This document shows, piece by piece, positions 21,601 to 63,499 of a DNA stretch of 64,000 nt. Source of the DNA: Lytechinus pictus (taxonomy: Eukaryota); NCBI RefSeq assembly GCF_037042905.1, contig NC_087245.1, forward strand, positions 12,836,001 through 12,900,000, written 5' to 3'. Positions within the stretch are counted from its first letter, which is position 1; the number at the start of each line of letters is the position of its first letter. A program made the position numbers and the translations under genes. The notes under the pieces were generated by a model. It made no database searches and was not told where the DNA came from. It saw only the letters and a program-made list of their open reading frames with translations.

Positions 21601-24600
21601 AGGGGTCTACATTTGTAAATCTGTGTACCAGTACAATATACATTTTTAATCTCCATATTATTGATGCAATGCACAATGAATTAATGTACCATGCATTAAC
21701 TGGGTTGTGGAGGCAATGGATGCATACATACACTGTAGTACACATATTAAAAGCATCTATATTAATCCAAAGAAATTGCATAAACTCACACTATATACAT
21801 GTACATGTAGTAAAAAATCCACATCAGAGAGTAAGTTTACATTACATACAATACATGCAGGGAATATTTAGTGAGATTCCTTGTACTGTACAAAAATATC
21901 TACTTGTTGCACATACATTTTTGATATATCCCATCAGGGATAGGACTCACACAGCATAAATAAACTCAGTATTGTAAAACCACAGTACTTCAATTCCTCT
22001 CTCAAATGCACATGAATATCATAATAAAAAATTTTTTTTTTCAAATGCAATGGCATTTTTTTGGCTGGGACTTGATCAACAGGACTCCAATTCAATTACA
22101 GGAGTGAGAAGCCGCTTATTATATCAGCACTTTGCTTCGGGCTCTGTCACGCTACATGTACAGTAGGGCACAGATATCCAAAGCATCCAGGCACCAACCA
22201 AAGCAATTCAGATTCAGGACCTTTGTTCATAAAAGTTGGGAATAAATTAATTCCTCTACAGGAAAGTGTAGGGAGGCAAGGGGGAGAATTGGGTGTTGAG
22301 ACATTCTAACGGCTAAAACAAACACAATGTATGTACACTGTACACAAATAAATGCAGATCATTATTGATTTGTAGTACAAGTAAAATCAGCTTATTTTTC
22401 AGATAGGCCTACATGTACATGTAATACAATTCAATTTATAGCAAAGTTGAATTCGCAAATCACTCTCCTCTACATGTACTAGGCTCCAAAGTATTTAAAA
22501 AAATATGAAAACTAACAATTGAGACCCCCATGTCTGTACACCTACATGTACAAGTGGACTGAAGATCCATGAAAAATTCATTCAATTGATATATTGTTTC
22601 TTAAACTTGTATGCCCCCCAAAGAAAATCCATCCAAATAGAAACAATTCTTTTTTATGAAAAGCTACAGCCTTGTCATTTAAAAAAAAATGGTGCTCCAT
22701 GTCTGCACACCCATTCATTACACATTGCTGACCAACACATTGCCAACATTAAACATTAATTTCTAGTATGGTACCTCCTGGTATCTTTTCTATTTATTTT
22801 CTTTGAGGCCGTTCTCATTACGCTTTCTAAAACTAGTTTACTGGAAACCGATTCAGGAAACCAGTTTGGAAGATCGCTTTGCTAGCGTTCCCACTTGATC
22901 ACACGAAAGTGGTTTTCAAAATCACTTCACGTAAAGCGCTCTTGTTGCTATGGAAATGCTCTCATAGGGTTGACATGTTTCGCGCGAAATTCGAAACCGC
23001 AGCATAGGCATTCTACACCTGTCTTGTGGAGTAGCGCGCTCAAAATGTGCGAAGATCGCTTCCCGAAGAACGGTTGTGTCCTCACTTACGCTAAAACCAG
23101 TTTAACGAGGCAAAGCGATCTTGAAAACTACATCGCGAGGTGGTTTTCCAAACTGGTTTGGAAGATCGCTTCCAAGACCGCTTCAACCGTTCTCACTACG
23201 CGTTAAACTAGTTTCCACTAAACTAGTTTCCAGTAAACTAGTTTTAGGAACGTAGTGAGAACAGCCTCTTTCAATGAGATGAATCTGATCTGTTTTGTAA
23301 TTTGTACAATATTAAACTTCTACAAATTCTTACGAAAAAAAATATGGAGCAAATTTCAAAATAGGCCTTGATTTGAAAATTTTGAATTTTAATATACATT
23401 GTAAGACCTGAGAGACAAATCAAATATTGCATGAGAGTAAACCAAAAAAAATGCTTTAAATAGTGTTTAGGGGATACTGGAAAATATTTTTGAGCTTTCA
23501 TTTTCTGTTCATATCATAAAAGGTTCAAGTGCTGCAAAGGACTGCTCCTCAGATACTTTCACTTTTATTTCAAGCTTTTGACCCAAGACAGCTGATAATT
23601 TTCATGACAAACATTTGTGTGAACTGTGAAGTAATACAGTTGAACTGTGTTCAGTGTGTAGTGGTTTTCTTTTCATCAAACACTGATTTCAACATGATCA
23701 GAGCTTGATCACTTTATTTTACATTGATCATGCAAAGACAGCTGATTTACAACTTAATTATTTCTTTTCATGGAGCACCTCTCAGTTAGACTATTCAACT
23801 TGATTCTCCTGTCTATCTCTAAGCGGATGTTTTTCTCACTTAGCAACGACTAGCCAATCAGATTTAAGCTGAGAGCAACCTCATGGTTAATTTTTACACT
23901 CCAACACACGCGGTAGAAAGTCTTCACCTAGTAAGGACATGTACAATTTCTGCTAGTCACTTTTCTTTGCAACACAACAAATAGCTCTTACTTTGGGATT
24001 TATTTTTCATCATCAGGATTTCAAGTTCTTCATTTTCCATCCTTTTGATTTTGGACATATGTAAATATATACTCATCGCTTGTGTTATCCAAGTGGACAG
24101 CGTGTAATATTTCTAGGAGAACATCTCGTGTCACGATCACCCTATTCGCGACGCGTTTCGCTGAGGCCTCACGTGCGCGGTCGTTCTTCATCGCGACATT
24201 GTTCTTCATTCGCATTTATCTTGTTTATGGACATCGCATTAAAGGATCCCGATGAATTACTCGCCACTAGATTTTCTACATTTTTGCCTTCGCATATTGG
24301 ACCTCAGTGCTGGTGAGTCAATCAGATATTTTTATGTTAAGTAAGTTCTCATTTCTTACAATTGGTGACCCCGACGTGATTTTCGAGACGCAACAATTTT
24401 CATCATGAATCAACAATCAGCTAATCCAGCTGCTGCGGTATCGCATGTCGCTGCAGTCGCCTTAAAGCTTCCCCCATACTGGCCGAACGATCCCGCTGTA
24501 TGGTTCGCTCAAGTACAAGCCCAGTTCATGACGAGGGGAATTACTTCAGAGGAGACTCAGTTTGCGTACATTGTGTCTGCACTTCAACCTGAGATTGCAC

Positions 24601-27600
24601 AGGAAGTCAGGGATATTTTAATGAACCCTCCTAAGGACACACCGTACTCGCACCTCAAAGCAGAATTGATTCGCAGGACATCAGTCTCGGAGCAGAAAAG
24701 ACTCCACCAGCTACTTACCCAAGAGGAACTAGGGGATCGAAAACCCTCCCAGTTATTACGTAGAATGGAACAACTGCTTGGAAGTGATCATCTTGATGAA
24801 ACAATCTTCAAACAATTATTTTTGCAGCGACTTCCACATCATGTCCAGACAATTCTAGCGTCAAGCCGCGACGACATGAAGGTGACACAGTTGGCAGACT
24901 TGGCTGATAGAATCATTGATATTGGTTCAACAAGTACTGTTTCTGCTGTTAGTTCGCCCTCGTCTTCTACTTCTAGTTCAGAGTTGTCACAACTTCAACA
25001 GCAAGTAGACAGACTTACATTTCAAGTGCAGTCATTGACTACGCAACTTCAACATGAACGTGGTCGATCTCCAAATAGGCGCCCTCAACGTCCAAATACT
25101 CATTCAAATAGACAACGTAGCAGGAGTAGCAGTCAAAAGCGTCCTCTCTGTTGGTATCACTGGAAACATGGTGCAGAAGCTCGCAAGTGTACACCGCCAT
25201 GTAACTTTAATCACGCTTCTTTGTTTTCGAGTGATTCTCAACAGCCTTCTTCCAACACCCATGCTCAGGGAAACGACAGAGCCAGCCGGGATTAAGAGCG
25301 ACGACTCGTGCTGGTGCTAAGAATAAGAATGGTCGCTTGTTCTACATTCATGATCGGATCAGTGGTACTCAATTTTTGGTAGATACTGGAGCGGAAGTCA
25401 GCATAATCACGCCATCTGCAGTTGACAGACAACGGCATACACATTCAGAGTACACATTGGAAGCGGTTAACGAGTCTCGCATTCGTACGTATGGTGAACG
25501 CTCCATCACTTTGGATTTAGGCCTTCGAAGGACTTTTCGTTTTGTTTTCGTGATTGCCGATCTTCCTACACCCATTATTGGAGCCGATTTCCTGGATGAA
25601 TTTGGACTGGTTGTAGATGTTAGGCATCGAAAACTTATTGACTCCACTACAAAGCTCACGATCGACGGCATCCGTGCTCCACTTCACACGCAGTCTGTCA
25701 GTCCTATGTTTTCACGTTCATCGACTACAGGCAGTGATGAGTATAACGCCATCTTAAAGGAGTACCCAGACATCACTCGTCCTGACTATCGCCCCAAAGC
25801 TGTCAAACATTCTGTTACGCACCACATTGTAACGACAGGACCTCCATGTTCCGCACGTCCACGTCGTTTAGCTGCTGATCGCCTGACGATAGCACGTTCT
25901 GAGTTCGAACATATGCAGGAACTGGGGATCGTTAGACCGTCGAGTAGCAATTGGGCATCCCCGCTCCACATGGTTCCCAAATCTACACCAGGTGATTGGC
26001 GCCCATGTGGGGATTACCGTGCTCTTAACGCTCGAACTGTACCAGATCGCTACCCAGTCCCACATATCCAGGATTTTACAGCATCATTGAATGGCAAGGA
26101 GATCTTTTCGAAGATAGATCTCATCAAGGCATACCATCAGATACCCGTTGAACCATCTGATATACCGAAGACGGCAATTACCACACCCTTCGGACTCTTC
26201 GAGTTTACGCGAATGCCTTTCGGACTTCGAAATGCAGCCCAATCCTTCCAGCGTTTGATGGACGAAGTGGTCAGGGGCTTGCCTTTTGTCTTTGTGTACA
26301 TCGACGACATGCTAGTTGCTAGTGCAACAGAGGAAGAGCATAAGGAACATCTCCGACTTCTTTTTGCTCGCCTTCACGAGTATGGTATAGTGATCAACCC
26401 TGCCAAGTGTGTGTTTGGTGTGAGTTCTCTCATCTTCTTGGGACATCACATCAGCGCAGATGGCATTCGACCCCTCGAGAAGCGCGTGGAGGAGATCCGC
26501 GAATTTGCTCGTCCTTCTTCTATTCGACAGCTCCGTCGTTTTCTAGGACTTGTCAATTTTTATCGACGATTTATCCCCAAGGCAGCAGCTATCCTCGCAC
26601 CACTTACCGACATGCTCCGTGGTCAGCCGAAGAGATCAACCAAGGCAGTTGAGTGGACGGAAGAGCGCATCAGTGCATTTGAGCGTGCGAAGGAGGAACT
26701 TGCAAATGCTGCTTTGCTTGTACATCCTTCGACAGATCTCCAAACTAACTTGATGGTTGATGCATCAGATGTAGCAGTCGGTGGCGTCCTTCAACAGTAC
26801 GCTGATGGTATTTGGAAGCCAATTGCGTTCTTTTCACAGCGACTCAAACCTACCGAAATAAGATACAGCACTTTTGGTAGGGAATTATTAGCTATTTACC
26901 TCACGATTCGCCATTTTCGCTATTTCTTAGAGGGACGCGAGTTCACAGTCTACACAGATCATAAGCCATTGACCTACGCTTTGCGATCGAAGCCTGACCG
27001 TCACTCTCCAAGAGAAATCCGCCAGCTAGACTATATCTCGCAGTTTACATCAGACATACAGCATGTACACGGTGTAGACAACACAGTAGCTGATGCCTTG
27101 TCTCGACTGCACGTGGATGCTCTCCACACATCATTTACTGTTGATTTTGATCAGATTGCAGCCGACCAAATTGATGATGAATGGGAAGAGATACAGAAAT
27201 CAACTTCACTGACATTTAAGCAAGTACCACGGCCTTCAAGCGACGGAATGATTTGGTGCGATGTCTCTACAGACCACGAGAGACCTTACGTCCCGAAGAA
27301 ACACCGCCGCATGGTATTTGAAGCGTTGCATAATATGTCACATCCTGGTGTACGCTCTACCCAAGCAATGATTACTTCACGTTTTGTTTGGCCAAGTATG
27401 AACAAGGACATACGTACGTGGGCTCGTTCATGCTTATCTTGCCAGCGCTCTAAGGTCCATCGACATATCAAGGCACCACTTGGAACCTACACTGCGCCAG
27501 ACGCCAGATTCAGTCATATTCATGTAGACTTAGTCGGTCCATTGCCTTCGTCAAATGGATATTGTTACATGTTAACCTGTATTGATCGGTTTACAAGATG

Positions 27601-30600
27601 GGCCGATGCTTTCCCAATATCAGACATTACAGCAGAGACTGTCGCCAAGACACTTGTGCATGGGTGGATTTCCCGATTTGGCGCACCCTCAACCATCACC
27701 ACGGACAGAGGTAGGCAGTTTGAATCGCAACTCTTCCAAGCACTCACTTCACTTCTTGGGAGCTCTCGTACACGCACCACTGCGTATCACCCTGCGGCCA
27801 ATGGTATTGTGGAGAGATTCCATCGTCAGCTCAAAGCAGCACTTCGAGCGCAATCTGATCCCAGCAAATGGCAAGAGTTTTTGCCTATCGCACTTTTGGG
27901 CATACGCACAACGGTAAAAGAGGATCTTGGATGTACACCAGCAGAACTGGTGTATGGAACTACACTGAAGGTTCCAGGTCAGCTGGTGGCACCAACGACT
28001 CCGGACTCTTTCTCCAACCCAGGCGACTATGTTCATCGCCTTCGCAACTATATGATTGACATCAACCCTGCACGAACACGTTCTCAAACTACTACATCGC
28101 ATGTTCCACCTGATTTGCAAGATTGCTCGCATGTATTTATCAGGTGTGATGCTGTCCGGCCATCACTTCAGCCGCAATATGATGGACCTTACAGAGTTGT
28201 TAGTAGGACGCCAAAGTTTTTCATTTTGGATGTGAAAGGGAAGAATGATTCCGTCAGCGTTGATCGTCTCAAGGTTGCTCATCTGCCATCTACTACAAGC
28301 ATGGACAATTCAATTCAACATCATGCATCATTTTCATCGCTACCTACTCCTACTGCCTCTACTCCACCGGTGCGGACAACCAGATCAGGTCGCCGCGTCC
28401 ATTTTCCAGCTCGTTTTGCCCAGTTTTCCAATGGATGAAAGGACATCTTACATTATCATGGGACCAATGCTTTGTATCGATCAACTTAACTCTTGTTCGT
28501 TGATCTAGGAGGGGAGTATTGTAGTGGTTTTCTTTTCATCAAACACTGATTTCAACATGATCAGAGCTTGATCACTTTATTTTACATTGATCATGCAAAG
28601 ACAGCTGATTTACAACTTAATTATTTCTTTTCATGGAGCACCTCTCAGTTAGACTATTCAACTTGATTCTCCTGTCTATCTCTAAGCGGATGTTTTTCTC
28701 ACTTAGCAACGACTAGCCAATCAGATTTAAGCTGAGAGCAACCTCATGGTTAATTTTTACACTCCAACACACGCGGTAGAAAGTCTTCACCTAGTAAGGA
28801 CATGTACAATTTCTGCTAGTCACTTTTCTTTGCAACACAACAAATAGCTCTTACTTTGGGATTTATTTTTCATCATCAGGATTTCAAGTTCTTCATTTTC
28901 CATCCTTTTGATTTTGGACATATGTAAATATATACTCATCGCTTGTGTTATCCAAGTGGACAGCGTGTAATATTTCTAGGAGAACATCTCGTGTCACGAT
29001 CACCCTATTCGCGACGCGTTTCGCTGAGGCCTCACGTGCGCGGTCGTTCTTCATCGCGACATTGTTCTTCATTCGCATTTATCTTGTTTATGGACATCGC
29101 ATTAAAGGATCCCGATGAATTACTCGCCACTAGATTTTCTACATTTTTGCCTTCGCATATTGGACCTCAGTGCTGGTGAGTCAATCAGATATTTTTATGT
29201 TAAGTAAGTTCTCATTTCTTACAAGTGCAAGAGACTTTGAGTAGATTTACATACACATGTATCAACAATTGGGACTCCCCATTCTTACACAATACTCAGA
29301 TTATTTGGTGCCTTAACTAACATTTATCACTCACTATCACATTGCATTGGGTAATTTCTTCCATTAGTCAATCTACTGACTGTAAATGAATTTATTTTTA
29401 AAGATTACATGTAGTACCACCATCCATACAAGTCATGTCTAATTAAATATTTACATGTATCTACATTTTTCATATAAACTGAAATGAGGAAATGCAAGCA
29501 AATGGATTGTACATTGGTAAATATAAACACTGAGCAGAGCCTTTAAAACTCATGGACAATTATGAAATACAAGTAGCAATGATAAGTACATATCCCAATC
29601 AGGCTGATGAAAATGTTGGAGTCAGGGGCAATTTTAGTCAATTCTTTTCAAAGCACTTCAGCTTGTGCATTCAAACGTCAAGAATAAAAATTAGTAATAG
29701 GAGAATGTTGAAATTAAGTAATTATATAGAGGGAACATCATTCTTTTATTAACCGGGATTAACAGATTTTGTTTGCAATTGAAATAAGGATAAATATGAT
29801 GTAGAACTGAAAATCTACATGTATCCTGGCAGAGCTTGACAGGATTAATGACAGCAACAGTAAAGCAATTACAATGTACTACAAAGCTGTATAATTACTC
29901 ATCAGGGCCCGTATTCCATAAACGAGATAAGCATGCTTAAGTCAAAAATCTAAGCATTTTGTCTTATTTTCTGTCTAAGACAAAATTCTTAGCCAAAACG
30001 CGTATTCCATAAAGAATTGGCTAAGAATTTTGTCTTAGAATTTGGCTAAGAGGTTTTGCGCGACTAAGACAGATATAGGATGAATGGCTAAGTAACTTTT
30101 CTTAAAACTGCAGAGTCTGTATTTCATAAATACAACATGGCTAAGAATTTAGCCCTAACTTTAAGACAGGTGTGAGTTGTCTTAATTGCTTTAAGACAAC
30201 CTGGTTTAAATCCAACAAATCATGGCCAATTTTTTTTTAGAATTTATACCTATATTGCATTTCGAGCTACTTCCTCAGTTTTTTAACCGATTTTCATGAA
30301 ATTTGGAACACACATTGGTCTTAAAGTAAGGAGGTGTGAGAAATTTTTTTTTTGCTTTTTCAGAAATTGTGTTGCCATGGTAACAGTATATTATGGCCAA
30401 AATTTAAAATTTAAATTACTTCATCAGTTTTCTACCAATTCTCATGAAAGTTGGCTCACACATTGGATTTGAGGAAAAGATGTGCAAGACACAATTTTGC
30501 ATGTGTTGGAAATTGTGTTGCCATGGTAACAGTATATTATGGCAAAAATTATGTATAAATCTTGCTATTCCAACTACTTCCTCAGTTTTTAACAAATTCT

Positions 30601-33600: not shown

Positions 33601-34085
33601 AGGGCACGGTTTCAGCAGCAAAACTTAAAATTGATAACATATAAGAACTGCCAAGAATCATGTTCAACCAGACCTCCTTTGAGTTTGATCAATATAAAAA
33701 GACAGTGTGTACAGGCTCAAGCAACTCTTGCGACAAACCACTCTCACACCTCAATGCAGGTCTAAAAAAGCTACAGTAAATGTAGGCCCCATTTATTTTT
33801 GTTGCCAATCATTTAACATATTTTTTTTAAACTGATGCTTTAAAATTAACCATTGTGCGGAATCACATACATGTACAACATGGGAACAAGTTTGTTTGGG
33901 CATAAAGGTAAAAAGAATAGAACACACTCTGATTATACTGCAGCTACATGTACATACTGTCTGATTTATTTAGAGCTTACCTGAGTTATCTCTGATGAAA
34001 CGACCCAGATGACATCCACTACAAGGAGTAAGAGGATACCAACAGCCATTCTCTTAGGTCTGGTTAGTCCACTGGTAAGACTCAT
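614..34085 (-). CDS. SLC35F5: Solute carrier family 35 member F5 (DMT-superfamily transporter), 13 coding exons, 489 aa
   Basis: Hand-spliced GT-AG exons with consistent phases: 34085-33981, 21446-21300, 16580-16518, 11031-10944, 10297-10241, 9560-9427, 8330-8249, 6478-6391, 5647-5481, 4473-4314, 2026-1936, 1416-1220, 704-614 (1470 nt including TGA). Peptides such as [69 protein letters not shown] and [30 protein letters not shown] match SLC35F5 as I recall it. Confidence 0.95.
3547..4143. mobile_element. Non-autonomous TIR element (CCC...GGG termini, CMC/EnSpm-like MITE)
   Basis: TIR CCCG(G)nCACTTACATTGACGAGTGGATACCATGC versus GCATGGTATCCACTCGTCAATGGAAGTGG(C)nTGGG, inserted in an (AC)n tract. 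Confidence 0.75.
6953..7928. mobile_element. Non-autonomous Tc1/mariner-type element
   Basis: About 36-bp TIR (CAGTGCGTATCAAA...AAGTTTACACTT) at both ends with TA TSD; no transposase. Confidence 0.88.
11420..11850. mobile_element. Partial TTAA-type (Kolobok-like) non-autonomous element
   Basis: Ends GGACTTGACCT-TTAA; internal segments resemble 61514-62128 (TGTCTGATTTTTCT, ATAACTTT...ATT). Confidence 0.5.
11900..12366. mobile_element. PIF/Harbinger-like MITE
   Basis: TIR GGTGGTTTCAGACCGCCTCGA / TCGAGGCGGTTTGAAACCACC; flanks AAA and TAA. Confidence 0.75.
15741..15794. repeat. 11-bp tandem repeat (TACATGTATGT) x about 5
   Basis: Directly visible. Confidence 0.9.
20398..21271. mobile_element. 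PIF/Harbinger-like MITE
   Basis: TIR GG..GTGTTTATGCTTCCA at both ends, TTA TSD, internal subterminal inverted repeats. Confidence 0.82.
22805..23268. mobile_element. MITE with about 44-bp TIRs (Harbinger-like)
   Basis: GAGGCCGTTCTCATTACGCTTTCTAAAACTAGTTTACTGGAAAC versus its near reverse complement at 23225-23268. Confidence 0.8.
23657..24360 (+). repeat. 5' LTR (704 bp)
   Basis: TGTAGTGG...CTTACA; direct repeat of 28520-29223 at offset 4863, the same offset as the duplicated ORFs in the ORF track. Confidence 0.96.
24363..24382 (+). promoter_or_regulatory. Primer binding site complementary to the tRNA-Trp 3' end
   Basis: TGGTGACCCCGACGTGATTT starts 2 nt after the LTR and is the reverse complement of the metazoan tRNA-Trp 3' end (...AAATCACGTCGGGGTCACCA). 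Confidence 0.92.
24405..25295 (+). CDS. gag: Retrotransposon Gag (296 aa)
   Basis: [21 protein letters not shown] capsid-like motif; C-terminal C-X2-H-X9-C-X3-C ([18 protein letters not shown]) knuckle typical of CsRn1-clade elements. Confidence 0.93.
25268..25338 (+). promoter_or_regulatory. -1 programmed ribosomal frameshift signal (slippery heptamer plus predicted H-type pseudoknot)
   Basis: G GGA AAC in the gag frame at 25268-25274, then a 6-nt spacer. Stem 1 pairs 25281-25290 with 25305-25315; stem 2 pairs GAGCGAC 25296-25302 with GTCGCTT 25332-25338. Pol is in the -1 frame and open across the site. Confidence 0.85.
25337..28438 (+). CDS. pol: Retrotransposon Pol (protease, RT, RNase H, integrase), probably expressed as a Gag-Pol frameshift fusion from about 25274
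   Basis: FLVDTGA protease; MPFGL and YIDD RT; VDAS RNase H; HHCC zinc finger; D-D-E integrase (HVD, TDRG, VER); GPY motif. No internal stops. Confidence 0.96.
28507..28516 (+). promoter_or_regulatory. Polypurine tract
   Basis: AGGAGGGGAG ending 3 nt before the 3' LTR. Confidence 0.85.
28520..29223 (+). repeat. 3' LTR (704 bp)
   Basis: Identical by eye to the 5' LTR; followed by the AGTG TSD. Confidence 0.96.
29906..33576. mobile_element. 3.7-kb non-autonomous TIR element (Harbinger-like, CAG TSD) carrying a 160-bp tandem array and a CTAG-rich block
   Basis: TIR GGCCCGTATTCCATAAAC / GTTTATGGAATACGGGCC, CAG on both sides, subterminal CTAAG/CTTAG repeats, no transposase ORF. Confidence 0.82.
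30280..31600. repeat. Tandem array of about 160-bp units, each with a GTTGCCATGGTAAC-type palindrome
   Basis: Motif starts at 30371, 30517, 30677, 30837, 30996, 31157, 31313 and 31460. Confidence 0.88.
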
Positions 34086-34353
34086 CTTGAAGTCAGTCTT
34101 AGTAGTTGGTGAATGGCAAACAACCCCACACTCTACTAACCATGCAGTGATGATGGGAAATATGAAAGGTAAGAGCTGCCTTCAATCCAAAACTTGAACT
34201 TAAAGCTACAACAAACATCTACCACGGCAAACCACATTCCATGTAAATGGTTACTGTCCTGTTGCTACCTTGGCCTAGGTCTGTTGAAAAACAAAAATGT
34301 TGGTACAGATGAATTGTGATTTTAAAAATAATCATTGTGACCCTAAATCTCAT

Positions 34354-39971: not shown

Positions 39972-40250
39972 ATCTTAAAGTAAATAAAAAATGACTTCTT
40001 TACCCCACTTACGTGACTCATGAAACTTTAGGCACGTCTGAACAGAGTTCAGAAAAAGTGAGAGAGATGGAAACTTGTCGTGAAGCAGATGAGAACAATC
40101 TCGGTAGTGCCAATGGTTGACAAGAGCTGGCGCTATTGCTCTCAATGCATTATACTTTTGCCCCTCCCTCCTTTTGGTATTCCCCACTAAAGTCCCCAAC
40201 GACATTATACATCAGGCCAGGTTCAAGGTAGGTACGACTGAACGGCACCA

Positions 40251-43200
40251 ATGGCCAACCAAACTGTTGTAGGTATGCTACACATATTTCACCACATTTC
40301 CAAACATGTTCCTAGCAGCCTCGCTTGCACAGCAGATTGATACATTGTCTGAATTACTTGTGAGTTGAGAAATCATGGCCGAGAATGATCAACGGGTATG
40401 TAAATGTTATTTACATGACGAACCAAAAAATAAGCATTAATGATATTCTTATTCATGTTAAAGTCGTATTTTTTTATCATGTGTTGCAGGCCCAATGTTA
40501 ATTATCTATACTTGGCTTAATGTGTGACGTGTGATAGTATTTGGCACAGACCTACAATCCTACATTGATTTCCGTGATATTCGTACAAACATGACTAATG
40601 TCAGAATTTTGTATAGATCTTCAATTTTGAATTTTGAAATTGAATTACAAATGATCTCTCCCCTGTCTCTACTAGGAAGAGGGGAGGAGTGGAGGGAAGG
40701 GAAGAAAGATCCAAATAGATTTAGAGAGTGTAGGAGCGAGAAAAGAGAGAGAGGGTCGGAGTGAGAGAAGGGGAGCCAAAGAGGGGAGCAGTGCGCGGGG
40801 AGGGGGGGGGGGAATGATGGTAATGATGAGCGCTCTGGAAGTGAAGAAAACTGAAGTATGCCAATAATTATGGAGAGAAGGGTATAGGAGGCACGGTCAT
40901 GATTATGGTCGGGATGCAGAAATAGGCGAGAGAGAGAAATAGATATATAGACGATGGAGAAGAGGATAGGGCCTATTACAGACATGATACAGTTAGGAGG
41001 GGTACTACGGGCTAAAAATAATTATGTCTAAATAAATAGATTAAAATCGAGCAAAATGCTTAAAATTTCATCAAAAATGAAGTCGTTTAATTTTAAAGTT
41101 AAGCAATATTTTTGTGAAAACAGTCATGCCTATTCATTAAGTGGGCTGATGGTGTCATATCCACACTTTCCATTTTGTATGTTATTACATGGAATCATAT
41201 CATTTTTTCATACATGTTTGAACGATTTGTCTCTCTTATACTCAAATAAGTTGCAGCAATGAATATTTGATGCATTGAATCAGTTGTCAATAATGTTTTC
41301 TGTTCTTGGTGGAAAAACATAAATAAAAATAAAAGAACAAGTAGGGATATGACTATCAGATTGCTAAATGAATATTTATAAAGTTTGAACTGTTTCAACG
41401 AAATAGTGCAGATCTTTAAAATATCATAACTTTGTCATAAGTGTATAATTTTGATCAAAATTGTTTTCTTTATTTGTTAAACATATGTTCAGCCTGGAGC
41501 AAAACACAATTTGACGAGAGTTTCAGAAAGAGAACGAGAGACGAGCGGGCGGGGGGGGGGGGGGGTGCAAAGATGAATTCAGACAATAAATCATCATTTA
41601 GTGGAACAAGGTGATTCTGAAAATGAATTTTACTTCAAACATATGCCCATGAAGACACAGATTCATATACGTGAACACAAAGTTGGCCAATTTCTTCGTA
41701 ATTTCGTGCACCAGTACATTTTTAAGGGGTTCACTTCAAGTTGTCAAAAATGTTGTTCTAGTCGACGAAAAAGGTTGACACTAGACTGTATTGAGGTTTG
41801 TCGATTTGATAAGTAAGCAAAAAAATAAAAATAAATAAATAATATGGATAGATAAAGATATCTAATAAAGGCTTTCAAGTCCAAAAATGGTTGACATTTA
41901 GGCGCAGGAAAGGAGGGGGGGGTTCTCTTTTGTACGTCATTGCTAGTCTAAAAAAGTGATTTTATTTTTTGATACAGCCACAATCAATTTCTTATTGTGA
42001 TTCAAATTTCACTATTCTTTTTTTTAAATATAATTCTCCTCATTTCCTGCCAATCATATCATCCAGATTACTCCCCTGCGGAAACATAGGGTGCATGCAC
42101 AATGATCATGGTGCTTTTTGTAAACAAAAACGTTCAGACAACATACCATTATGATGCATTTTCTAATAATAATCTTGTCGTACATTTGCGTATAAATAAT
42201 TAAATCAAATTAAAGGGGCACTCCAGGCAGAACATAAAAATAAAGATAAAGAAAAATCAGACAAACACCTGCCCCCCCCCCCCCTCCGCCTCAAGTTTCA
42301 ATTAACCTCTGCTGGGAATTTGGAAACTCCCAGTTTTATAAAGACACACATTATGTGTGTCATACAAACAGATGGCCAGACAAATTGAATCAATACCATA
42401 TATGATTCTTCAAAAATACAAATGATTTAATTTTGATATGAAAGAATGACAAGGCCGCCCTTTTTTCACCTGAGGTGACACAGAAAGGACTTTGTTATGC
42501 TCAGAGATTAATTAGGTTTACTTTATGCCAAAATATAAACTTGCGGTCTATTTGCATTTATGAATACAAATAATAAGACCATACAGAACTGATATATAAC
42601 AATGTGTTTTTTTTGGGGGGGGGGTGGGTCGGGGAGAATGACAGCAGTTGGTAGGTTTATATCAATCAATCTTATAATTGCTCTTTTATTTTTTTTTTAT
42701 GTTTATACACATGCTTAGGCATATCAAAACAGAAGAAGAAGAATCTAGTTCTGCAGCCTATGATGAAGTTCATGTTTTTAAGAGATTAAAGGAGAACATT
42801 TCTATTATTTTTAATCATTATAGACACATCGCATCGGTAGAGAGCGGATAAAATATCTGACAGATGGCCAGGTTAGTGATATTTTACTTCAGCAGATATG
42901 CACTTTTCTTTTTCTTATCGATGGTGCATCCAGGTTTGATAAAATAGTAATGGGTTCATTTGAATTTAGACGATTTCTTTAGAATTTTTACAAGCAAAAA
43001 ATAGGAGGTAGAAAAGATGGCTGGCCCCAATAATTGAAAAACAAAAGAGGAGAGCTTCATATTTATGAGTAGAAAAGATAGAAACAATGGCCCGCATTCA
43101 CCAATTAAGGTGGATTCGAAAATTCATTGAATCTGCAGAATCCACCTTTGTGAATCCAGGTCATTGGGGTTTGATCATATTAATCTTAATGTTGATCATC

Positions 43201-46200
43201 CTGTTAAAATATCTCGTTATGCTTAAAGATAAAACACAAAGAAAAACAATTAGCACACAAATCGCAGACACTGTACGAAAGTGTGTTCTCAAAACATAAA
43301 TCCATTCTAAACTTATTTTCGAGGTTTAAACATTCATTGAAACGTTATACATCTGCTGTTTCGTCACTCTCATATTTAATTTGGCTTAATGTTAAATTTA
43401 CTGCAGCCGGATCAGAACAAGATACGGTCAATATGTCGGGCAATCTCGACAGAATGTAACTACACCAGGGTAGACTTCAATGTCCGTGATAACGGAACGA
43501 CTGAGTTCTTTGTCAGGGGAGCCGACGATAAGATGGAGCTTGCTCTTAGGTTAATACATCTGAGACTAAAAGGAAGAGTGAGTATTAAAAGACTGCCAAT
43601 CGTGTTTCCATGGAAATTATTTTGATAAAGAATTTTAAGCAATTGTGTCTATCATCCAGAAGTAGAATAGAGATTTATGACCCATTGATTTAACATAACT
43701 GATATGTAAATTACTCTCAGTGTTTTACTATTGTAAAATAATTGTCCCTGGACCGAAATAAGGAATTTGATGGGACATGAATTTGCCGATCTCCGGGCCT
43801 ATATTTTGATGTTTTTTAAACTTCACTCTAAAAATATATTGGGTAAAAATGCTTCATGAGGGTAATTATGTGTCCAACCAACATTGGACATTTCTTTTGG
43901 GCATTTTTATTTATCCATTTTAATGAATATTTTGCCCATTCTAAAGTAATTGCTGCTTATTTTTTTTAACCTTACTGGACAATATGCTTCCCGCATTGGG
44001 TAAAACACTGCCCCAAATTGGTTGGACACATAATTAACCTCGTGCTGGTTAAAATTTTACCCAATGTGTTTTACAGTGTTGTATCAGTTTTAAAGAAGAC
44101 TGAAAATACAATGTCTAGTGGTTAAAATAAACATGTCCATAGCTTTGAATATCAAGAGACAACACTGGGGAACTATTTCATGAAAGCTGTCAGCACCATA
44201 AAATCCAACAATCAGTGCAGTACTTCGATTAGATACAATCATGTGCTCCTTCCTCTTCAGCCAATCACAACCATAAGTTGCCAATCGAAAAAAATGTTGG
44301 GGGAAATGCTCCCAAAGCTTATTAAAAAATTCCCTTGTTTCCATGTTCAAGAAATTATATATAGGCGAACGGATGAATTGAAGTTTGTCTTAGTTTCAAA
44401 ATGAGTAAATATATTATCTGGCAGGATGGCGGACAGCCCCCTCCCGAGGTAGTACCATTAACTGTAGAGAATATCAGGAGACACAACAGGAATCTAACAG
44501 AAAGAAGACAGTTCGTATGTGGAGCTTGCCCGAAGATTTGGTTTAAAAAAGTGTTCAGCTACAAACCTGTTTCACGGTAAGAAATAATCGTCTTTGTTCA
44601 ATATAATACGGCATAATTTCCAAATACGCTAAATTCAAATTAGTACTTTTAATTATAGGGCAAAAAGCAGGCCCCTATATAGATTAGAACTTGTACGAAA
44701 TATCGGATCAGGGGGAGGGGGATAGATGGGGGTCCACCCCTGGATTACACGACAATTAATGAATGTGGTGATTATGGGGGAACAAAGAAGTGCCCCGGAT
44801 TGTAGTTAACCTTTTGATAATTTTCTCTCTCTCTCTCTTTGTTTTTTTTTGCTTGTCAATGATTGAATGAAAAATGTAATTTTGAAATATGTTATTGCCT
44901 GTCATTTTTTTTTAGATTTAAGTAATTTCTAGCCCTATTTTTTTCTCAAAAAGTCAAATTGCATCAAACGATTCTCTGCCCCAATCTTCCCAATCAATAA
45001 TTATAATTATTAACTTGGGGTAAGGGTTCATATTAGACTTAATAATGAACATTTTCTACATTCTAGTTGCCATTATTTGATTGGGATCATTTATCAGTAG
45101 GTCCCAATTAGTTTGTCAGAGCCTTGTCGATGCATATGAATATTTTGCATAGCGAACGTATCCACCTTGTTAGGTGCTCAAGGCGCTCCTATATTCTAGT
45201 CTACCGATTCCGGTGCTCACAGTTCACAGCTTTTTGAGGAATTACTTCATACCGGTAATCTTTTACCTTACCTGGGTTGAGTGCAGCACAATGTTGGTAG
45301 ATTGCTTGCTCATATTACCACATTTACCAAGCATTATCTATTTTTTTTCAGGTGTGCTCAATGTCATGTCCGTTATGATCCTATTCCTCGTGGTAGTGAA
45401 TTTGGACATGGTTACTACAGGTGTGGACATTGTGGAAATGAATTTACAGGACGGGCTACTGCAGGAGTTCCAGCACCTTGTTTCGTTTGTGGAAGAATGG
45501 TAAGATATTTTAATAACCAAACACTTTTACGAAGATACGTTGCTAGCACTGTCATTTCGGCGAAACTGACCCCCCGACCAATCAAATATAATTATTGGGG
45601 CTTTTCCTGTAGCATAACAGTGAAATGATTGTAATCTTTGTATCCTGCTTTCATCCGGGGTTTTAATCAATACCTTCTCTTTTCGCTTTTCATCAAAATG
45701 TACACCTGCTCTTCAAACGAAAGTAAATCAAACAATGACGAAAAGGAGAATATCGCGGCAACACCAGAAAAGGACATGGCCGTACGCAGACGTGTTTTCG
45801 GGGGAGGGGGGGCCAAGACACCTACATTTTTAAAAACTAATCTTGAAAGTAAGGGAGCTAAGCGACCGAGATTTTCATGGGGGCATTTTTGCATTTGATA
45901 AAGAGAAATTAAAAAATGTAAGTTTTAAAATTTTCGGGGGGGGGGGACTTTCCCCTACACCCCCCCCCCCCTGCGCTGCGTACGGCCATGGAAATGATAT
46001 TGTTTATGTTTTTGCATTTTTCTTGATATCGGCAGTGTTTGCCCTTGAGAATCGGACCGAAGCCCGAGAGGAATCGACCGCAGGGTGGTGGTCGTCATGC
46101 CTGTGAGATGTGTGATAACGGTAGGATCCGACCATGTCCATCTTTCAATCAATTCCCTGTCGTGAGCCAGCGCCATGAAAGCACCGGGTCAACAGTATCT

Positions 46201-46281
46201 ACCTTTCTCACACAAGCCTCAGAACTTTCCATCGATTTCGTAAAGGGTCAGGAAACTGTTGATGAAACACTCCCAATGTAA
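40251..46281 (+). CDS. SHFL: Shiftless antiviral inhibitor of ribosomal frameshifting homolog (SHFL/C19orf66/RyDEN family) with a KH-like N-terminus, about 260 aa
   Basis: Exons 40251-40268 (tentative), 42824-42871, 43407-43577, 44425-44576, 45352-45499, 46036-46281 with compatible phases. The segment LTVENIRR...RQFVCGACPKIWFKKVFSYKPVSRCAQCHVRYDPIP...CGHCGNEFTGRATAGVPAPCFVCG...VSQRHESTGSTVSTFLTQ parallels human SHFL as recalled ([36 protein letters not shown]...HISSGSTVATCLSQ). The last four exons are solid; the first exon is uncertain. Confidence 0.85.
40996..41505. mobile_element. Diverged copy of the TTAA-type element at 61514-62128
   Basis: Shared blocks GGGGTACT, GCAAAATGCT.AAAATTTCATCAAAA, AGTTGCAGCAATGAATAT and CAGCC.GGAGCA. 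Confidence 0.65.
43824..44078. mobile_element. CACT...AGTG MITE (CMC/EnSpm-like)
   Basis: CACTCTAAAAATATATTGGGTAAAA / TTTTACCCAATGTGTTTTACAGTG; TT on both sides. Confidence 0.7.
45775..45990. mobile_element. MITE in the last SHFL intron
   Basis: TIR CATGGCCGTACGCAG / CTGCGTACGGCCATG. Confidence 0.7.
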
Positions 46282-46978
46282 TGCCCACGTCCCTCCGATT
46301 CCTAAAAAAAAATGCATCGTCCCCTAAATTTTCTGAAAAATGTGTCCGTGTTTTTTGTTTTGTTTGCTTGTTTTTTTTCTTGCAGTACAAGCCTCATCTT
46401 CTCTCTATACATTTTTTTTGAAGCAATGGCGTCGGTTTTGAAGAAAATTGGCTCACTTCCTGTTATGTTCCTTCTGGATAATGAAGTCTTACTTGGATAT
46501 AGCGATATTCATGATTAATTTGCAACATGTTATACAATTACTTTGAAACATGAAATACCTATTAAGTTCATATTTTCCGAAATTCTATATTTCGAGTTTA
46601 TCACTACACCCCATGACTATACCCCAGTATTCGACGCAGAATAATATTAGACTACATAGACTAAGAAATGAAATAAAAATTAGTATGTGCTTTGAATAAG
46701 AGTAAGTATACAATGTCCCATTTACATTCCCATTCGTTGATTATTTGGCAAATGAAGTTCGTTTGTTTTGCGGTCTTTTGGTCTGAATCTTTCAAATGTT
46801 ACCGTAAATTCGGTTTAAATGGGAGGTTGATACTGCCCTATTTTATTGTTTAACTGCCATATTTATGACAAGTAAGGGTACATGATTGTGAATTACAGCG
46901 ATGTTACCATTTCAACATTATGTGTGGGCCCTACATTTTTTTTATTATTATCATCATAAATCATTAATAAAGTACATA

Positions 46979-48045
46979 CACTCGGCAAAAAAAGTTCTTG
47001 GACACTAAGAAAAGTTAAAATATTCCATATAGATATATTTGATGAAAGGCAAATTATTGTATGTCATCATGACCAGACAATATACCTCTTCCAGTATGAC
47101 ACGACATTTTCATGTGAACGGTCATGCATGGGTGGTTAAATGCTTTAAACAATAGTAATGTCAGTAAAAGAAAATTGCAAGAAATGGATCAGTCAGTGCA
47201 TGGCTGGTTACAGGCATTAAACAATAGCAATGTCAGTAAAAGAAAATTGCAATAAAACGATCAGTCATTCTTTCAGTTGTGAAAGTTTATGTGGCATAAA
47301 TATCCATTAAATGATAAAAGCAAATTTAAAGTCAAATACCACTCTTATAAGAGAAGAGAAGTTATCCACCTTGGATGCATCACTATTCCACTGGAATTTT
47401 AAGTCAAAGTTAGTCGATGACTGAAAAAAATGTCAAATTTCAGTATCTTGGCATAAGCAAAATAAAATTCAATATCTCGTTTGTCCACCCTGGCTCTGAC
47501 TGAGTGTACCACATCGACGTCGCATGCTTGTCACATGTCGGCGAATTTGCACTGGGGTGATGTTGTCCCATTCTTCCAGGAGATAACGCCGGACACCTTG
47601 AAGAGTGTCTCCTGGTTGAATTCTTTGATTGACCGATTTTCCTAGCTGATCCCACAAGTGTTCAAATGGGTTCATGTCTGGTGATCGAACAAGCGGGTCA
47701 TGGATCCAAGCGCTGAACATTGTGGTCATCCAGAAATCTTTGGACAATGTTCGCTCGATGGGGACAACCCCCTGTCAGCCTGTTGAAATCGTTGAATGTA
47801 TGCCTACAGGATGGCCATGATCATAGCATTTGAATGGTCCATTTCTTGCAATTTTCTTTTACTGACATTTCTATTGTTTAAGGCATTTAACCACCCATGC
47901 ATGACTGTGAACATGCAAATGTCATGTCATACTGGAAGAGGAATATTGTCTGGTCATGTTGACATACAATAATTTGCCTTTAATCGAATATCTATATGAA
48001 ATATTTTACGTTTTCTAAGTGTCCAAGAACTTTTTTTGCCGAGTG
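46979..48045 (-). mobile_element. Internally deleted Tc1-like transposon with long (about 200 bp) TIRs
   Basis: TA TSD; TIR CACTCGGCAAAAAAAGTTCTTGGACACT; residual transposase fragment inside. Confidence 0.9.
47469..47700 (-). pseudogene. Tc1 transposase C-terminal remnant
   Basis: SPDMNPFEHLWDQL (third catalytic residue region), EEWDNI and SMRRRC...GGQTRY are typical of Tc1 C-termini. Confidence 0.85.
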
Positions 48046-60400: not shown

Positions 60401-62595
60401 GGTTTTTTTTTTTTTTTTTTTGCTTGTCAAAAAATGTTGGTGGTCCCCCTCTAAAATTTTGGTTAATAACCTTTTTTAATTATTTTGTTTTTTGCTTGTC
60501 AAATATGTTTCCTGCGTCCCCCCTAAATTCAGGAGGACCCCCCCTAAATTTTTGTGGTCGCCCCTAAAATGTTGGTTGATAACCTTTTTTTTTTTTTTTG
60601 CTTGTGAAATTTTTTACCTGTGTCCATCCCAAAATTTCAGGTGGACCCCCCTAAATTTGTTGGCTTCCGCCGCCAATGCATAGGTGACAGATATCAAGAG
60701 AGCCATTTTGGAGTTTCTGATTAATTCATATTTATTAAAATGGAAATTTTCACCTTTCTTGATTTCAGTTTGCGTCATCAAAACCGATAATAGACAGTTT
60801 TCGCAATCACTACGCGGCCGCTCTCTACAACGCACCGATTCCTTTGAAAATGCAAATCAAATCACAATGGAGAGCTGAGAGGCTTTTGTCGAAAGTTAGG
60901 GGACACGGACGGCAGCGTCGTCTCATGACTCTGGACAACGACATATTTGCAATTTTTCGTCCGGTGCATATCTTGATGATCTGCTCCCACTTTCGACAAA
61001 AGCCTCTCAGCTCTCCATTGTGATTTGACTTGCATTTTCAAAAGAATCGGTGCGTTGTAGAAAGCGGCCGCGTCGTGATTGAGAAAACTCTGTTATATCC
61101 ATGTGTTAATTGATGGCGTATGCCTATTCATGCTACAGTCACGCAACCAAATATCGATCGGCTTCAAACCGACCGATTATGATTATCTAAGACATTCGAA
61201 ACAATGTATGATCGGTCTGGAGTGTATTCCAGTGTATACTTTTATAAGTTTTTTCTCATATATTTGTGAGTCACACTCATCTGGTACGATGCAGTGTCTT
61301 AAAATAATATTACATGATGTGCATAATGTATTAGAGTTAAGTAATTTGTTCGAATTATTCTTTACAATTGTTACTTTGTGAACTGCATTGTATGAATTTA
61401 ATTTGAGAGAAAAACAATAAAACATCTTTTTAAAAAAATCCGTTAGTGTGACTAGCCTCAGGTAGAGCTGAAAAGGATGGGATGCACAATCTCATGGCTT
61501 TTGCTGACGTTAAAGGGGTACTCCGGTCTGAAAATATTTGTATCTAAATGAATAGAGTAAAATTCACAAAGCAAAATGCTGAAAATTTCATCAAAATCGG
61601 ACAACAAATAATGAAGTTATTGAATTTTTAAGTTTAGCGAGATTTTGTGAAAATATTTATATGCACGTCATCATGAACATTCATTTGATGGGCTGATGAT
61701 GCCACATCCTCATTTTTTTTTTTTTTAATGTCATTACTAGTACATGAAATCATAATTGTTTCATTTTTTCATACATGTGTGAATAATGTGTCTCCTTTAT
61801 AATGAAATGAGTTGCAGCAATGAATATCGAATGCACTAAATCAGCTGTCAATCCATTTTTTATTCAATTCTTGGTAGAAAAAAATTGAATAAACCTACAA
61901 ATTTCATATAATAAATACAAAAGAATAAGTGGGGATATGATACCATCAATTCGCTTATTGAATATTCATGAAGACATGCCAAGAACTGTTTCACCGAAAT
62001 AATGCAAAATATTTAAAATGCCATAACTTTGTTATTCTTTGTCCGATTTGATCACATTTTTAGTGTTTTGTTTGTCTGATTTTTCTTTATCTGTTTAAAT
62101 AAGATTATTTTCAGCCCGGAGCATCGGTTTAATATCTCACTCTAATTTCTTCCAACATAAAAAATGAGAATAGTTGAAATAGTCTACGCATTCTTTATCT
62201 GTTCTTCCCTACCCCCCCCCCCCCACTAATTTCTACACCTCTGCTTGTCTATTAAACTGTCTCTATATCTTTGTCAAATTTTTGCTCTCCAATTTTTTCA
62301 TCAATCTTACTATCTCACTATACAGTGGATCGAAGCCCGTTTACGGATTTAGAATGTCATGAGCTAGCCAGTTTACTCCATCCGGATGATTTCCGCCGCC
62401 TTGGTCTGATATTGGGATGTCATGAAGCGGCGATCAGTAGATACGGAATGCAAAACAGAGATGGAAGATATGAGGGTACTTATAAGATGCTCACTGATTG
62501 GAAGAAGGGAGTCTTAGACCATGATCAGAGAGAAAATTTATCAAATGGATTGAATAAGGCAGGGGTGATTTCATTAGCTTTCCAGGTCCGGCATG
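57409..62595 (+). CDS. 5' part of a death-domain protein (possibly an NLR-type immune gene); continues beyond the window
   Basis: Exon 57409-57532 (ATG, Ser/Pro-rich, phase 1) joins the symmetric phase-1 exon 62326-62595 encoding FTDLECHELASLLHPDDFRRLGLILG...GTYKMLTDWKK...LSNGLNKAGVISLAFQV, a six-helix death-fold pattern with the typical ML..W motif. Confidence 0.75.
57614..59750. mobile_element. 2.1-kb non-autonomous TIR element with internal GCGAGCGCGAAGCGCGAGC tandem units
   Basis: TIR CAGGGGCGGATCCAG / CTGGATCCGCCTATG; motif copies near 58015, 58135, 58255, 58363, 58485, 58667, 59090, 59200, 59317 and 59515. A short relative lies at 59908-60110. Confidence 0.8.
60796..61089. mobile_element. 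Foldback/MITE with about 100-bp inverted arms
   Basis: CAATCACTACGCGGCCGC...GGCTTTTGTCGAAAGT versus its reverse complement at 60988-61089. Confidence 0.8.
61514..62128. mobile_element. TTAA-flanked non-autonomous DNA transposon (Kolobok-like)
   Basis: TTAA-AGGGGTACTCCGG...CCGGAGCATCGGT-TTAA. Confidence 0.72.
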
Positions 62596-63499
62596 GTAAG
62601 TATATAGCATTCATACTATATAATATGCCCCATTGCTCATAATCATAACCAAATATTCCCGTTCCTTAAGTAATACAAATTGGTTTCTATACTTGTAATT
62701 CACCCCGGTAGCATACACGTCATCATTTGATACTAAAACATGTAAAAAGGTGTTTTCCTCAATTATACTGTGACCACTTTCAGAATACAAGCACAATGAA
62801 CGTAAACCTGAAATCGAAGGTCATTTCTATTAAAAGAACAAAAAATGGATGGTGTTATAATTGAGAATTCATAGCAATACTAAAGTGAAAGGACTTAAGA
62901 TAACTTCTGTATAACTCCTTTGTGTGAGACATCACAAGATGATGACTCAAGTAACCACAAATGCCAATGAGATGAAGACAGTACTCTTTCTATCCATGCT
63001 AAAATGACAATTAATTATTGTACAAATGAATTAGGGGCCGTTTAATAAAGCTGTTCGTAAGTTAAGAGTGACTTCAAGAACGGTTGTTGATCCTTTCTTG
63101 TGGTAAATGCAGGCCGTCGCTAAAGGGGGGGGGGGGTGTGGGGGTGCGACACCTAAATCTAAAAAAAAGCAACAACCCCAGCTTGCGCTTCGCGCTCGTA
63201 GCATTGTATTGAAATCCACATCCTCTCTAAAAATTTCCTGAAGAGTGCTTAAAATGGTCCCTTTCGGGTCAGTAAGTCAACATTTTCAGCACGCGCTTCG
63301 TGCTCGTATTCTCTTTATTGGGATACACAGCCTGTCCAGTTACAGATGCAGAATCCGAACTTGTTCTAAATAATAACGAGTGGAGCGCCTCTGGCAGCCT
63401 CACCTGCATTAGGCGATTCGATATAGCAGTAGTGCTGACTTTGAAAACTACTATAAAATAATTATTCACAAAAAACACCATTCATATAATGATACAATA

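Follow-up and report, generated by a model that had tools for sequence, protein, structure and literature searches.

A sea urchin Shiftless homolog with a KH-like module, probably derived from vigilin, in place of the N-terminal helical bundle

The stretch of Lytechinus pictus DNA analysed here (the window: 64,000 nucleotides, positions 12,836,001 to 12,900,000 of the forward strand of contig NC_087245.1, assembly GCF_037042905.1) contains a spliced gene for a homolog of Shiftless (SHFL). Its product shares three zinc fingers and the phospho-loop residues with human SHFL, and very probably carries a type I KH-like domain of ~75 residues, lacking a GxxG loop, where human SHFL has a helical bundle. 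Taken as a whole, the best explanation, held with slightly more confidence than doubt, is a second, paralogous SHFL subfamily (KH-SHFL) whose KH module was captured from vigilin and has a docking role.

Contigs from two runs (X1 and X5), from two studies, join six exons through five GT-AG junctions (40395 to 42824, 42871 to 43407, 43577 to 44425, 44576 to 45352 and 45499 to 46036; positions are those of the window), which bears out the original prediction that exons 42824–42871 and 43407–43577 are spliced to 44425. The third junction is also crossed by one raw read in run X10. The contigs are read as transcripts because the runs contain about one-fifth of the words of 42700–46400, the expectation for exons only, and because the genome yielded a single SHFL locus. 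The gene is real, and its transcript is spliced. Two raw RNA-seq runs, of which ~6% was read, gave almost no exon coverage. Since the contigs use the donor at 40395/40396, the in-frame start is the ATG at 40375 and not position 40251, as first proposed with an implied donor at 40268 and a peptide beginning TVT. That earlier exon 1 is an open frame but not the spliced form if taken as 40251–40268, and is out of frame if taken as 40251–40272. The spliced coding sequence of 786 nt encodes 261 residues identical to P0002, named by NCBI ‘shiftless antiviral inhibitor of ribosomal frameshifting protein homolog’ of Lytechinus pictus, and exon 6 runs on as 3' untranslated region to at least 47000. No second, helical-bundle SHFL was found in the L. 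pictus genome by exon-wise searches with PF15135 and two helical-bundle queries, which gave few candidates and make the count of SHFL loci a lower bound. The features of the gene are as follows.

40207..40395, plus strand: exon 1, 5' untranslated region and the first 7 codons (ATG 40375), placed by contigs (pieces from 40207 in X5 and 40232 in X1, joined to 42824); the left end at 40207 is a contig end and not a mapped transcription start
40251..40340, plus strand: upstream open reading frame (ORF) of 29 codons in the 5' untranslated region, out of frame with the coding sequence, stop at 40340
40306..40368, plus strand: second upstream ORF, 20 codons
42824..42871, plus strand: exon 2, residues 8–23, preceded by a phase-0 intron; first strand of the KH-like module, invariant Glu14, short helix and loop
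43407..43577, plus strand: exon 3, residues 24–80; long helix, two strands, invariant Gly61 and final helix, with a phase-0 end 19 residues past Gly61
44425..44576, plus strand: exon 4, residues 81–131; low-confidence linker, helix 94–104 and first half of zinc finger 1 (C112, C115)
45352..45499, plus strand: exon 5, residues 131–180; rest of zinc finger 1 (C132, C135) and zinc finger 2 (C155, C158, C174, C177)
46036..46281, plus strand: coding part of exon 6, residues 181–261 and stop; zinc finger 3 (H201, C203, C206, C214) and short tail
46189..46212, plus strand: codons of S232–T239, counterpart of the human hyperphosphorylation loop (S249, T250, T253, S256)

Upstream ATGs lie at 40251, 40275 and 40306 of the 5' leader (40207–40395, plus strand), and the short ORFs all end before the main ATG. 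These upstream ORFs could limit or regulate translation.

The C-terminal part of the protein is an SHFL core. PF15135 matches residues 89–242 at 103.2 bits (curated cut-off 29.8), and the three zinc fingers (CCCC, CCCC and HCCC) keep all 12 human SHFL ligands, in agreement with the Cys-rich zinc region first read from the sequence. Across 21 KH-type rows of the alignment these ligands are invariant, save one gap in the jellyfish row, and mean column identity of the core across deuterostomes is 45–52%. By alignment, S232, T233, T236 and T239 correspond to human S249, T250, T253 and S256; the equivalents of S249 and T250 are found in 21/21 KH-type rows, and those of T253 and S256 are Ser or Thr in 21/21. 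Frameshift inhibition by human SHFL is almost lost in the T250A and T253A mutants, and T250A also lowers IGF2BP binding and polysome association (PMC12724340; here and below, papers are cited from those parts of their texts that were available). The W191–G259 bridge of the human protein is required for the P-body block (PMC12987661) and is not reliably mappable onto the urchin protein. Equivalents of human R126, R133 and R136 are lost or mixed in KH-type proteins, and the C-terminal tail of 20 residues, 5 of them acidic, is not the Glu-rich tail of vertebrate SHFL. No relative was found in the viral contigs searched.

Residues 8–80 form a module of a different kind. Secondary structure is predicted as a strand at 6–11, a short helix at 13–15, a helix at 26–39, strands at 44–49 and 55–60, and a helix at 63–77, giving a beta-alpha-alpha-beta-beta-alpha topology that recurs in the model of the ortholog from the hemichordate Ptychodera (two AlphaFold2 models, block pLDDT 75–90). 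In two structural searches, 16 and 18 of the best 50 rows had KH in their titles. Aligned with hhalign to 17 canonical KH domains of this genome, the module scored 27.9 over 40 columns (probability 76.9), whereas column-shuffled controls reached at most 12.7 in 59 shuffles; in global mode the match was weak (probability 7). There was no profile similarity to the helical bundle (probability 0.3). An N-terminus unlike that of vertebrate SHFL, the lack of a Glu-rich tail and a type I KH fold whose GxxG loop has degenerated had all been proposed. The proposed fold is supported here, with the refinement that it looks specifically like the diverged N-terminal KH of vigilin. Pfam KH matches in orthologs fell below the cut-off, with none for the L. 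pictus protein itself; a whole-protein profile searched against PDB sequences with HMMER found human SHFL and no KH entry at E < 10, and an ESM Atlas feature search gave no usable match for the L. pictus or Ptychodera protein. The GxxG string is absent from the module in 20/24 KH-type proteins, L. pictus included, and the four relatives that have one carry it at the helix–strand junction (two) or near the start of the long helix (two). Module charge varies: K+R against D+E is 15 versus 12 in L. pictus and 15–18 versus 9 in hemichordates, whereas sea stars and sea cucumbers have a neutral or acidic module.

Several lines of evidence connect this module to vigilin. An ESM Atlas structure search with residues 1–80 of the Ptychodera ortholog, the L. 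pictus protein having no Atlas model, compared predicted models on both sides and returned as its best two matches vigilin-type clusters (TM 0.90 and 0.89 over 79–80 residues), the aligned part being PF24668 (KH_Vigilin); the runners-up were a fungal KH cluster (0.81), other KH-protein clusters (0.67–0.72) and phosphoglucomutase domain IV (0.65). PF24668 also matches four KH-SHFL orthologs (E 5e-6 to 2e-4), and its best match in the urchin genome is a multi-KH gene on contig C14, near 23.566 Mb (61.7 bits), here taken to be vigilin. The N-terminal GxxG-less repeat of that gene, in predicted exons, aligns to positions 5–75 of the SHFL-module profile at 19.3 bits, against at most 6.9 bits in 500 shuffles. 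The exon boundaries agree on both sides. The first exon of the vigilin N-terminal KH opens in phase 0 with six codons ahead of the Glu aligned to SHFL Glu14, and its last exon ends in phase 0, nineteen residues past the strand-ending Gly; SHFL exon 2, and exon 3 after Gly61, are identical in these respects. The 19-residue phase-0 donor was found in 7/8 other repeats of the C14 gene but in 0/10 evaluable non-vigilin KH loci, and in amphioxus an isoform difference ends 18–20 residues past the equivalent Gly. The amphioxus records (Branchiostoma P0008/P0016) include an annotated isoform without 31 residues, the last strand and helix of the KH-like module; in this short form the KH-like domain would be broken and the core kept.

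Exon capture from a vigilin gene is thus the probable origin of the module, and that the source was specifically KH0, the diverged N-terminal repeat of vigilin, seems fairly likely. Several observations weigh against this origin: the internal introns of the SHFL module and of the vigilin KH differ, the vigilin exons are predicted and have no RNA support here, and another vigilin repeat (L005) scores 18.8 bits over a partial alignment versus 19.3 full-length for KH0 and is favoured by pairwise searches. For these reasons vigilin is better supported as the donor than KH0 in particular. The first exon of vigilin KH0 alone, aligned with hhalign to the full alignment, gave a weak result (probability 1.4). 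In vigilin (HDLBP), KH0, KH2 and KH12 are described as diverged domains without GxxG, and vigilin is polysome- and ER-associated and exploited by flaviviruses (PMC10939154).

Front ends were compared in a set of 208 proteins, redundancy and fragments included: 24 have the KH-like module, 79 the helical bundle, 105 neither and none both. Among named sources, the KH type is represented by sea urchins, a brittle star, sea stars, a sea cucumber, crinoids, three hemichordates, Branchiostoma and the jellyfish Sanderia. The helical bundle is represented by vertebrates, bivalves, gastropods, a cephalopod and, through a second gene, the brittle star Amphiura, which has both SHFL types. The architecture, which was to be looked for in echinoderms, molluscs and cnidarians, was found in other echinoderms and one cnidarian and not in molluscs, where the named SHFLs retrieved have a vertebrate-type bundle. 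No vertebrate KH-type SHFL turned up in these searches. In a core-only FastTree of 165 rows the KH types form one group (support 95) that also takes in a single N-terminally truncated row, and a core-only IQ-TREE of 53 hand-picked rows, without a defined root, gives a KH clade (96/85) and a helical-bundle clade of vertebrates and molluscs (100/98). Placing the KH types together with vertebrates was rejected (p-AU 0.028) in an AU test in which the group was named after the tree had been seen. Because the core-only tree separates the two types and the brittle star has both, KH-SHFL is, on phylogenetic grounds, a paralogous SHFL subfamily and not an ortholog of human SHFL. Judged from these taxa, the fusion dates at least to the deuterostome ancestor and perhaps earlier, the jellyfish record being single and partly mis-modelled. 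A published SHFL phylogeny covers 15 species with Xenopus as outgroup (PMC10433982).

Other architectures occur in the same set. P0024, P0036, P0046 and P0124 include SHFL cores fused to the 3'-5' exonuclease domain PF01612, in Balamuthia and Andalucia, and a core fused to the DRMBL nuclease-type domain PF07522. These fusions suggest an old core–nuclease link outside animals, and since Balamuthia and Andalucia have exonuclease-fused homologs, the core is probably older than animals. P0021, P0094, P0127 and the clade around P0025–P0074, many from environmental or transcriptome sources, have repeated core segments or little or no N-terminal domain.

By analogy with human SHFL, the zinc-finger core would bind RNA and ribosomes after phosphorylation of the Ser/Thr loop, and would act where ribosomes stall or recode (−1 frameshift or readthrough), and so on viral and retroelement mRNAs. 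The KH module would be mainly a docking surface for polysomes or a partner protein rather than a reader of bases, and may provide in cis the coupling that human SHFL has in trans via the KH-domain IGF2BP proteins. This combination of a phospho-dependent core on ribosomes with KH docking we regard as evenly poised between right and wrong. Docking is favoured over base reading because GxxG is gone, because module charge is not conserved, because the available text on an HDLBP KH0–KH4 fragment reports no high-affinity RNA substrate (PMC9117268), and because the KHNYN di-KH domain, which is needed for antiviral activity and has a GxxG-less KH1, bound no RNA tested in the available part of that study (PMC11997328). 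The same four points count against the view that the module truly binds RNA, adding target specificity and offsetting the basic residues lost from zinc finger 1; the loss of GxxG from most KH-type modules and the neutral or acidic charge in sea stars and sea cucumbers are at odds with it. However, in sea urchins and hemichordates the module has a net basic charge, the three arginine equivalents are lost or mixed, and diverged KH domains can substitute for conserved ones in yeast Scp160 (PMC1994781). We consider RNA binding by the module unlikely.

Another reading, likewise improbable, makes KH-SHFL a translation-surveillance factor for housekeeping or development that plays no part in immunity, antiviral use of SHFL being confined to the helical-bundle clade. 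Paralogy to human SHFL and the conservation of the core over deuterostomes would suit it, as would the proposal that human SHFL constitutively clears spontaneously frameshifted ribosomes (PMC10747187). However, this is the sole SHFL locus found in the genome, within the lower bound given above; its near absence from two raw RNA-seq runs and clear presence in contigs of two others fit regulated rather than constitutive expression, and the genome holds a young retroelement with a −1 gag–pol arrangement. Far less probable than either is that the module is a generic small alpha/beta fold (aIF2-alpha domain III, phosphomutase domain IV or ferredoxin-like) of convergent topology and not KH-derived. 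No aIF2-alpha or phosphomutase Pfam family appeared in scans at E up to 0.3–0.5, while KH_Vigilin was found in the four orthologs; the Atlas scores separate vigilin from phosphomutase, and the common intron positions are independent of the fold search.

A broader conjecture, which we think rather doubtful, is that the zinc-finger/phospho-loop core is an ancient module of eukaryotic RNA surveillance whose front end can be exchanged: a helical bundle, possibly UBA/CUE-like, in vertebrates and molluscs, 3'-5' exonucleases in protists, and here a vigilin KH cassette captured before the cnidarian–bilaterian split. The KH0-type domain would then dock at vigilin sites (ER-bound polysomes) or act as a vigilin decoy. 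If this were true, interferon-free animals would have a second inhibitor of recoding by viruses and retroelements, targeted independently and apparently missing in vertebrates.

The retroelement lies in the window 11 kb upstream of the SHFL gene. It is an apparently intact, young Ty3/gypsy-like LTR retrotransposon (23657–28819, plus strand) with two identical 300-nt repeats, a gag-like ORF at 24369–25292, a pol ORF at 25235–28435 in the −1 frame (protease, RT, RNase H and integrase) and an in-frame slippery heptamer, G GGA AAC, at 25268. Its proximity is probably due to chance; it shows that −1 gag–pol substrates exist in this genome, not a linkage to the SHFL gene. Elsewhere, an open frame at 62256–62639 (plus strand) has a weak, below-cut-off Death-domain match (PF00531, E 0.0027) and is perhaps an exon of an immune-signalling gene. 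Probable exons at 21126–21446 and ~33990–34160 (both minus strand) belong to a neighbouring membrane-protein gene without a Pfam assignment, which may resemble SLC35F5-type transporters. Downstream of the SHFL gene, a remnant at 47472–47774 (minus strand) has a weak DDE_3 transposase match (E 0.11).

The novelty originally supposed needs narrowing, in that the gene is already annotated as a shiftless homolog, whereas its architecture and the origin of that architecture look undescribed. No literature on invertebrate SHFL architecture was found in mostly open-access texts without supplements, and supplementary alignments of PMC12716391 or PMC12724340 could include such homologs. KH-SHFL is real, and within a known family it appears to be an undescribed paralogous subfamily of variant architecture whose domain donor can be traced. 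The role of the SHFL N-terminal region is poorly defined, the mutagenesis in the available parts of published work concerning the core and C-terminus. As a natural domain swap in which all zinc ligands and phospho-sites are retained, KH-SHFL directly tests whether the core suffices to inhibit frameshifting and what the front end contributes; L. pictus is a laboratory sea urchin, in which knockout is feasible. The subfamily further offers a second setting for study of the diverged KH0 fold of vigilin, and the database label ‘shiftless homolog’ covers two paralogous groups. Animals that are not known to have interferon carry the SHFL core, and its presence in them and in protists bears on whether SHFL began in ribosome surveillance or in defence.

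Among known systems, human Shiftless (SHFL/C19orf66/RyDEN; PDB 9KBO; PF15135) has an N-terminal helical bundle at residues 1–101 (PMC12716391), where KH-SHFL has the KH-like alpha/beta domain. The urchin protein further differs in having no Glu-rich tail, in the lost or mixed equivalents of R126, R133 and R136, and in belonging to a separate clade of the core tree. Invertebrate helical-bundle SHFLs (oyster, scallop, abalone, argonaut and Amphiura P0067) share with KH-SHFL the core and the ‘shiftless homolog’ name. Unlike KH-SHFL, they retain the bundle of vertebrates, fall into one clade with them (100/98), and are the likelier orthologs of human SHFL. KHNYN and N4BP1 KH1, from ZAP cofactors, belong to tandem KH domains joined to an NYN ribonuclease, whereas KH-SHFL has no nuclease domain and shows no evidence of descent from them. 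KH0 of vigilin/HDLBP/Scp160 (PF24668) resembles the KH-SHFL module in its fold (TM 0.90, Ptychodera ortholog), the absence of GxxG, the Glu and Gly anchors and both flanking phase-0 introns; it differs at 15% identity (hhalign) and in the internal intron, and is one of 15 repeats, whereas KH-SHFL bears a single such domain on a zinc-finger core.
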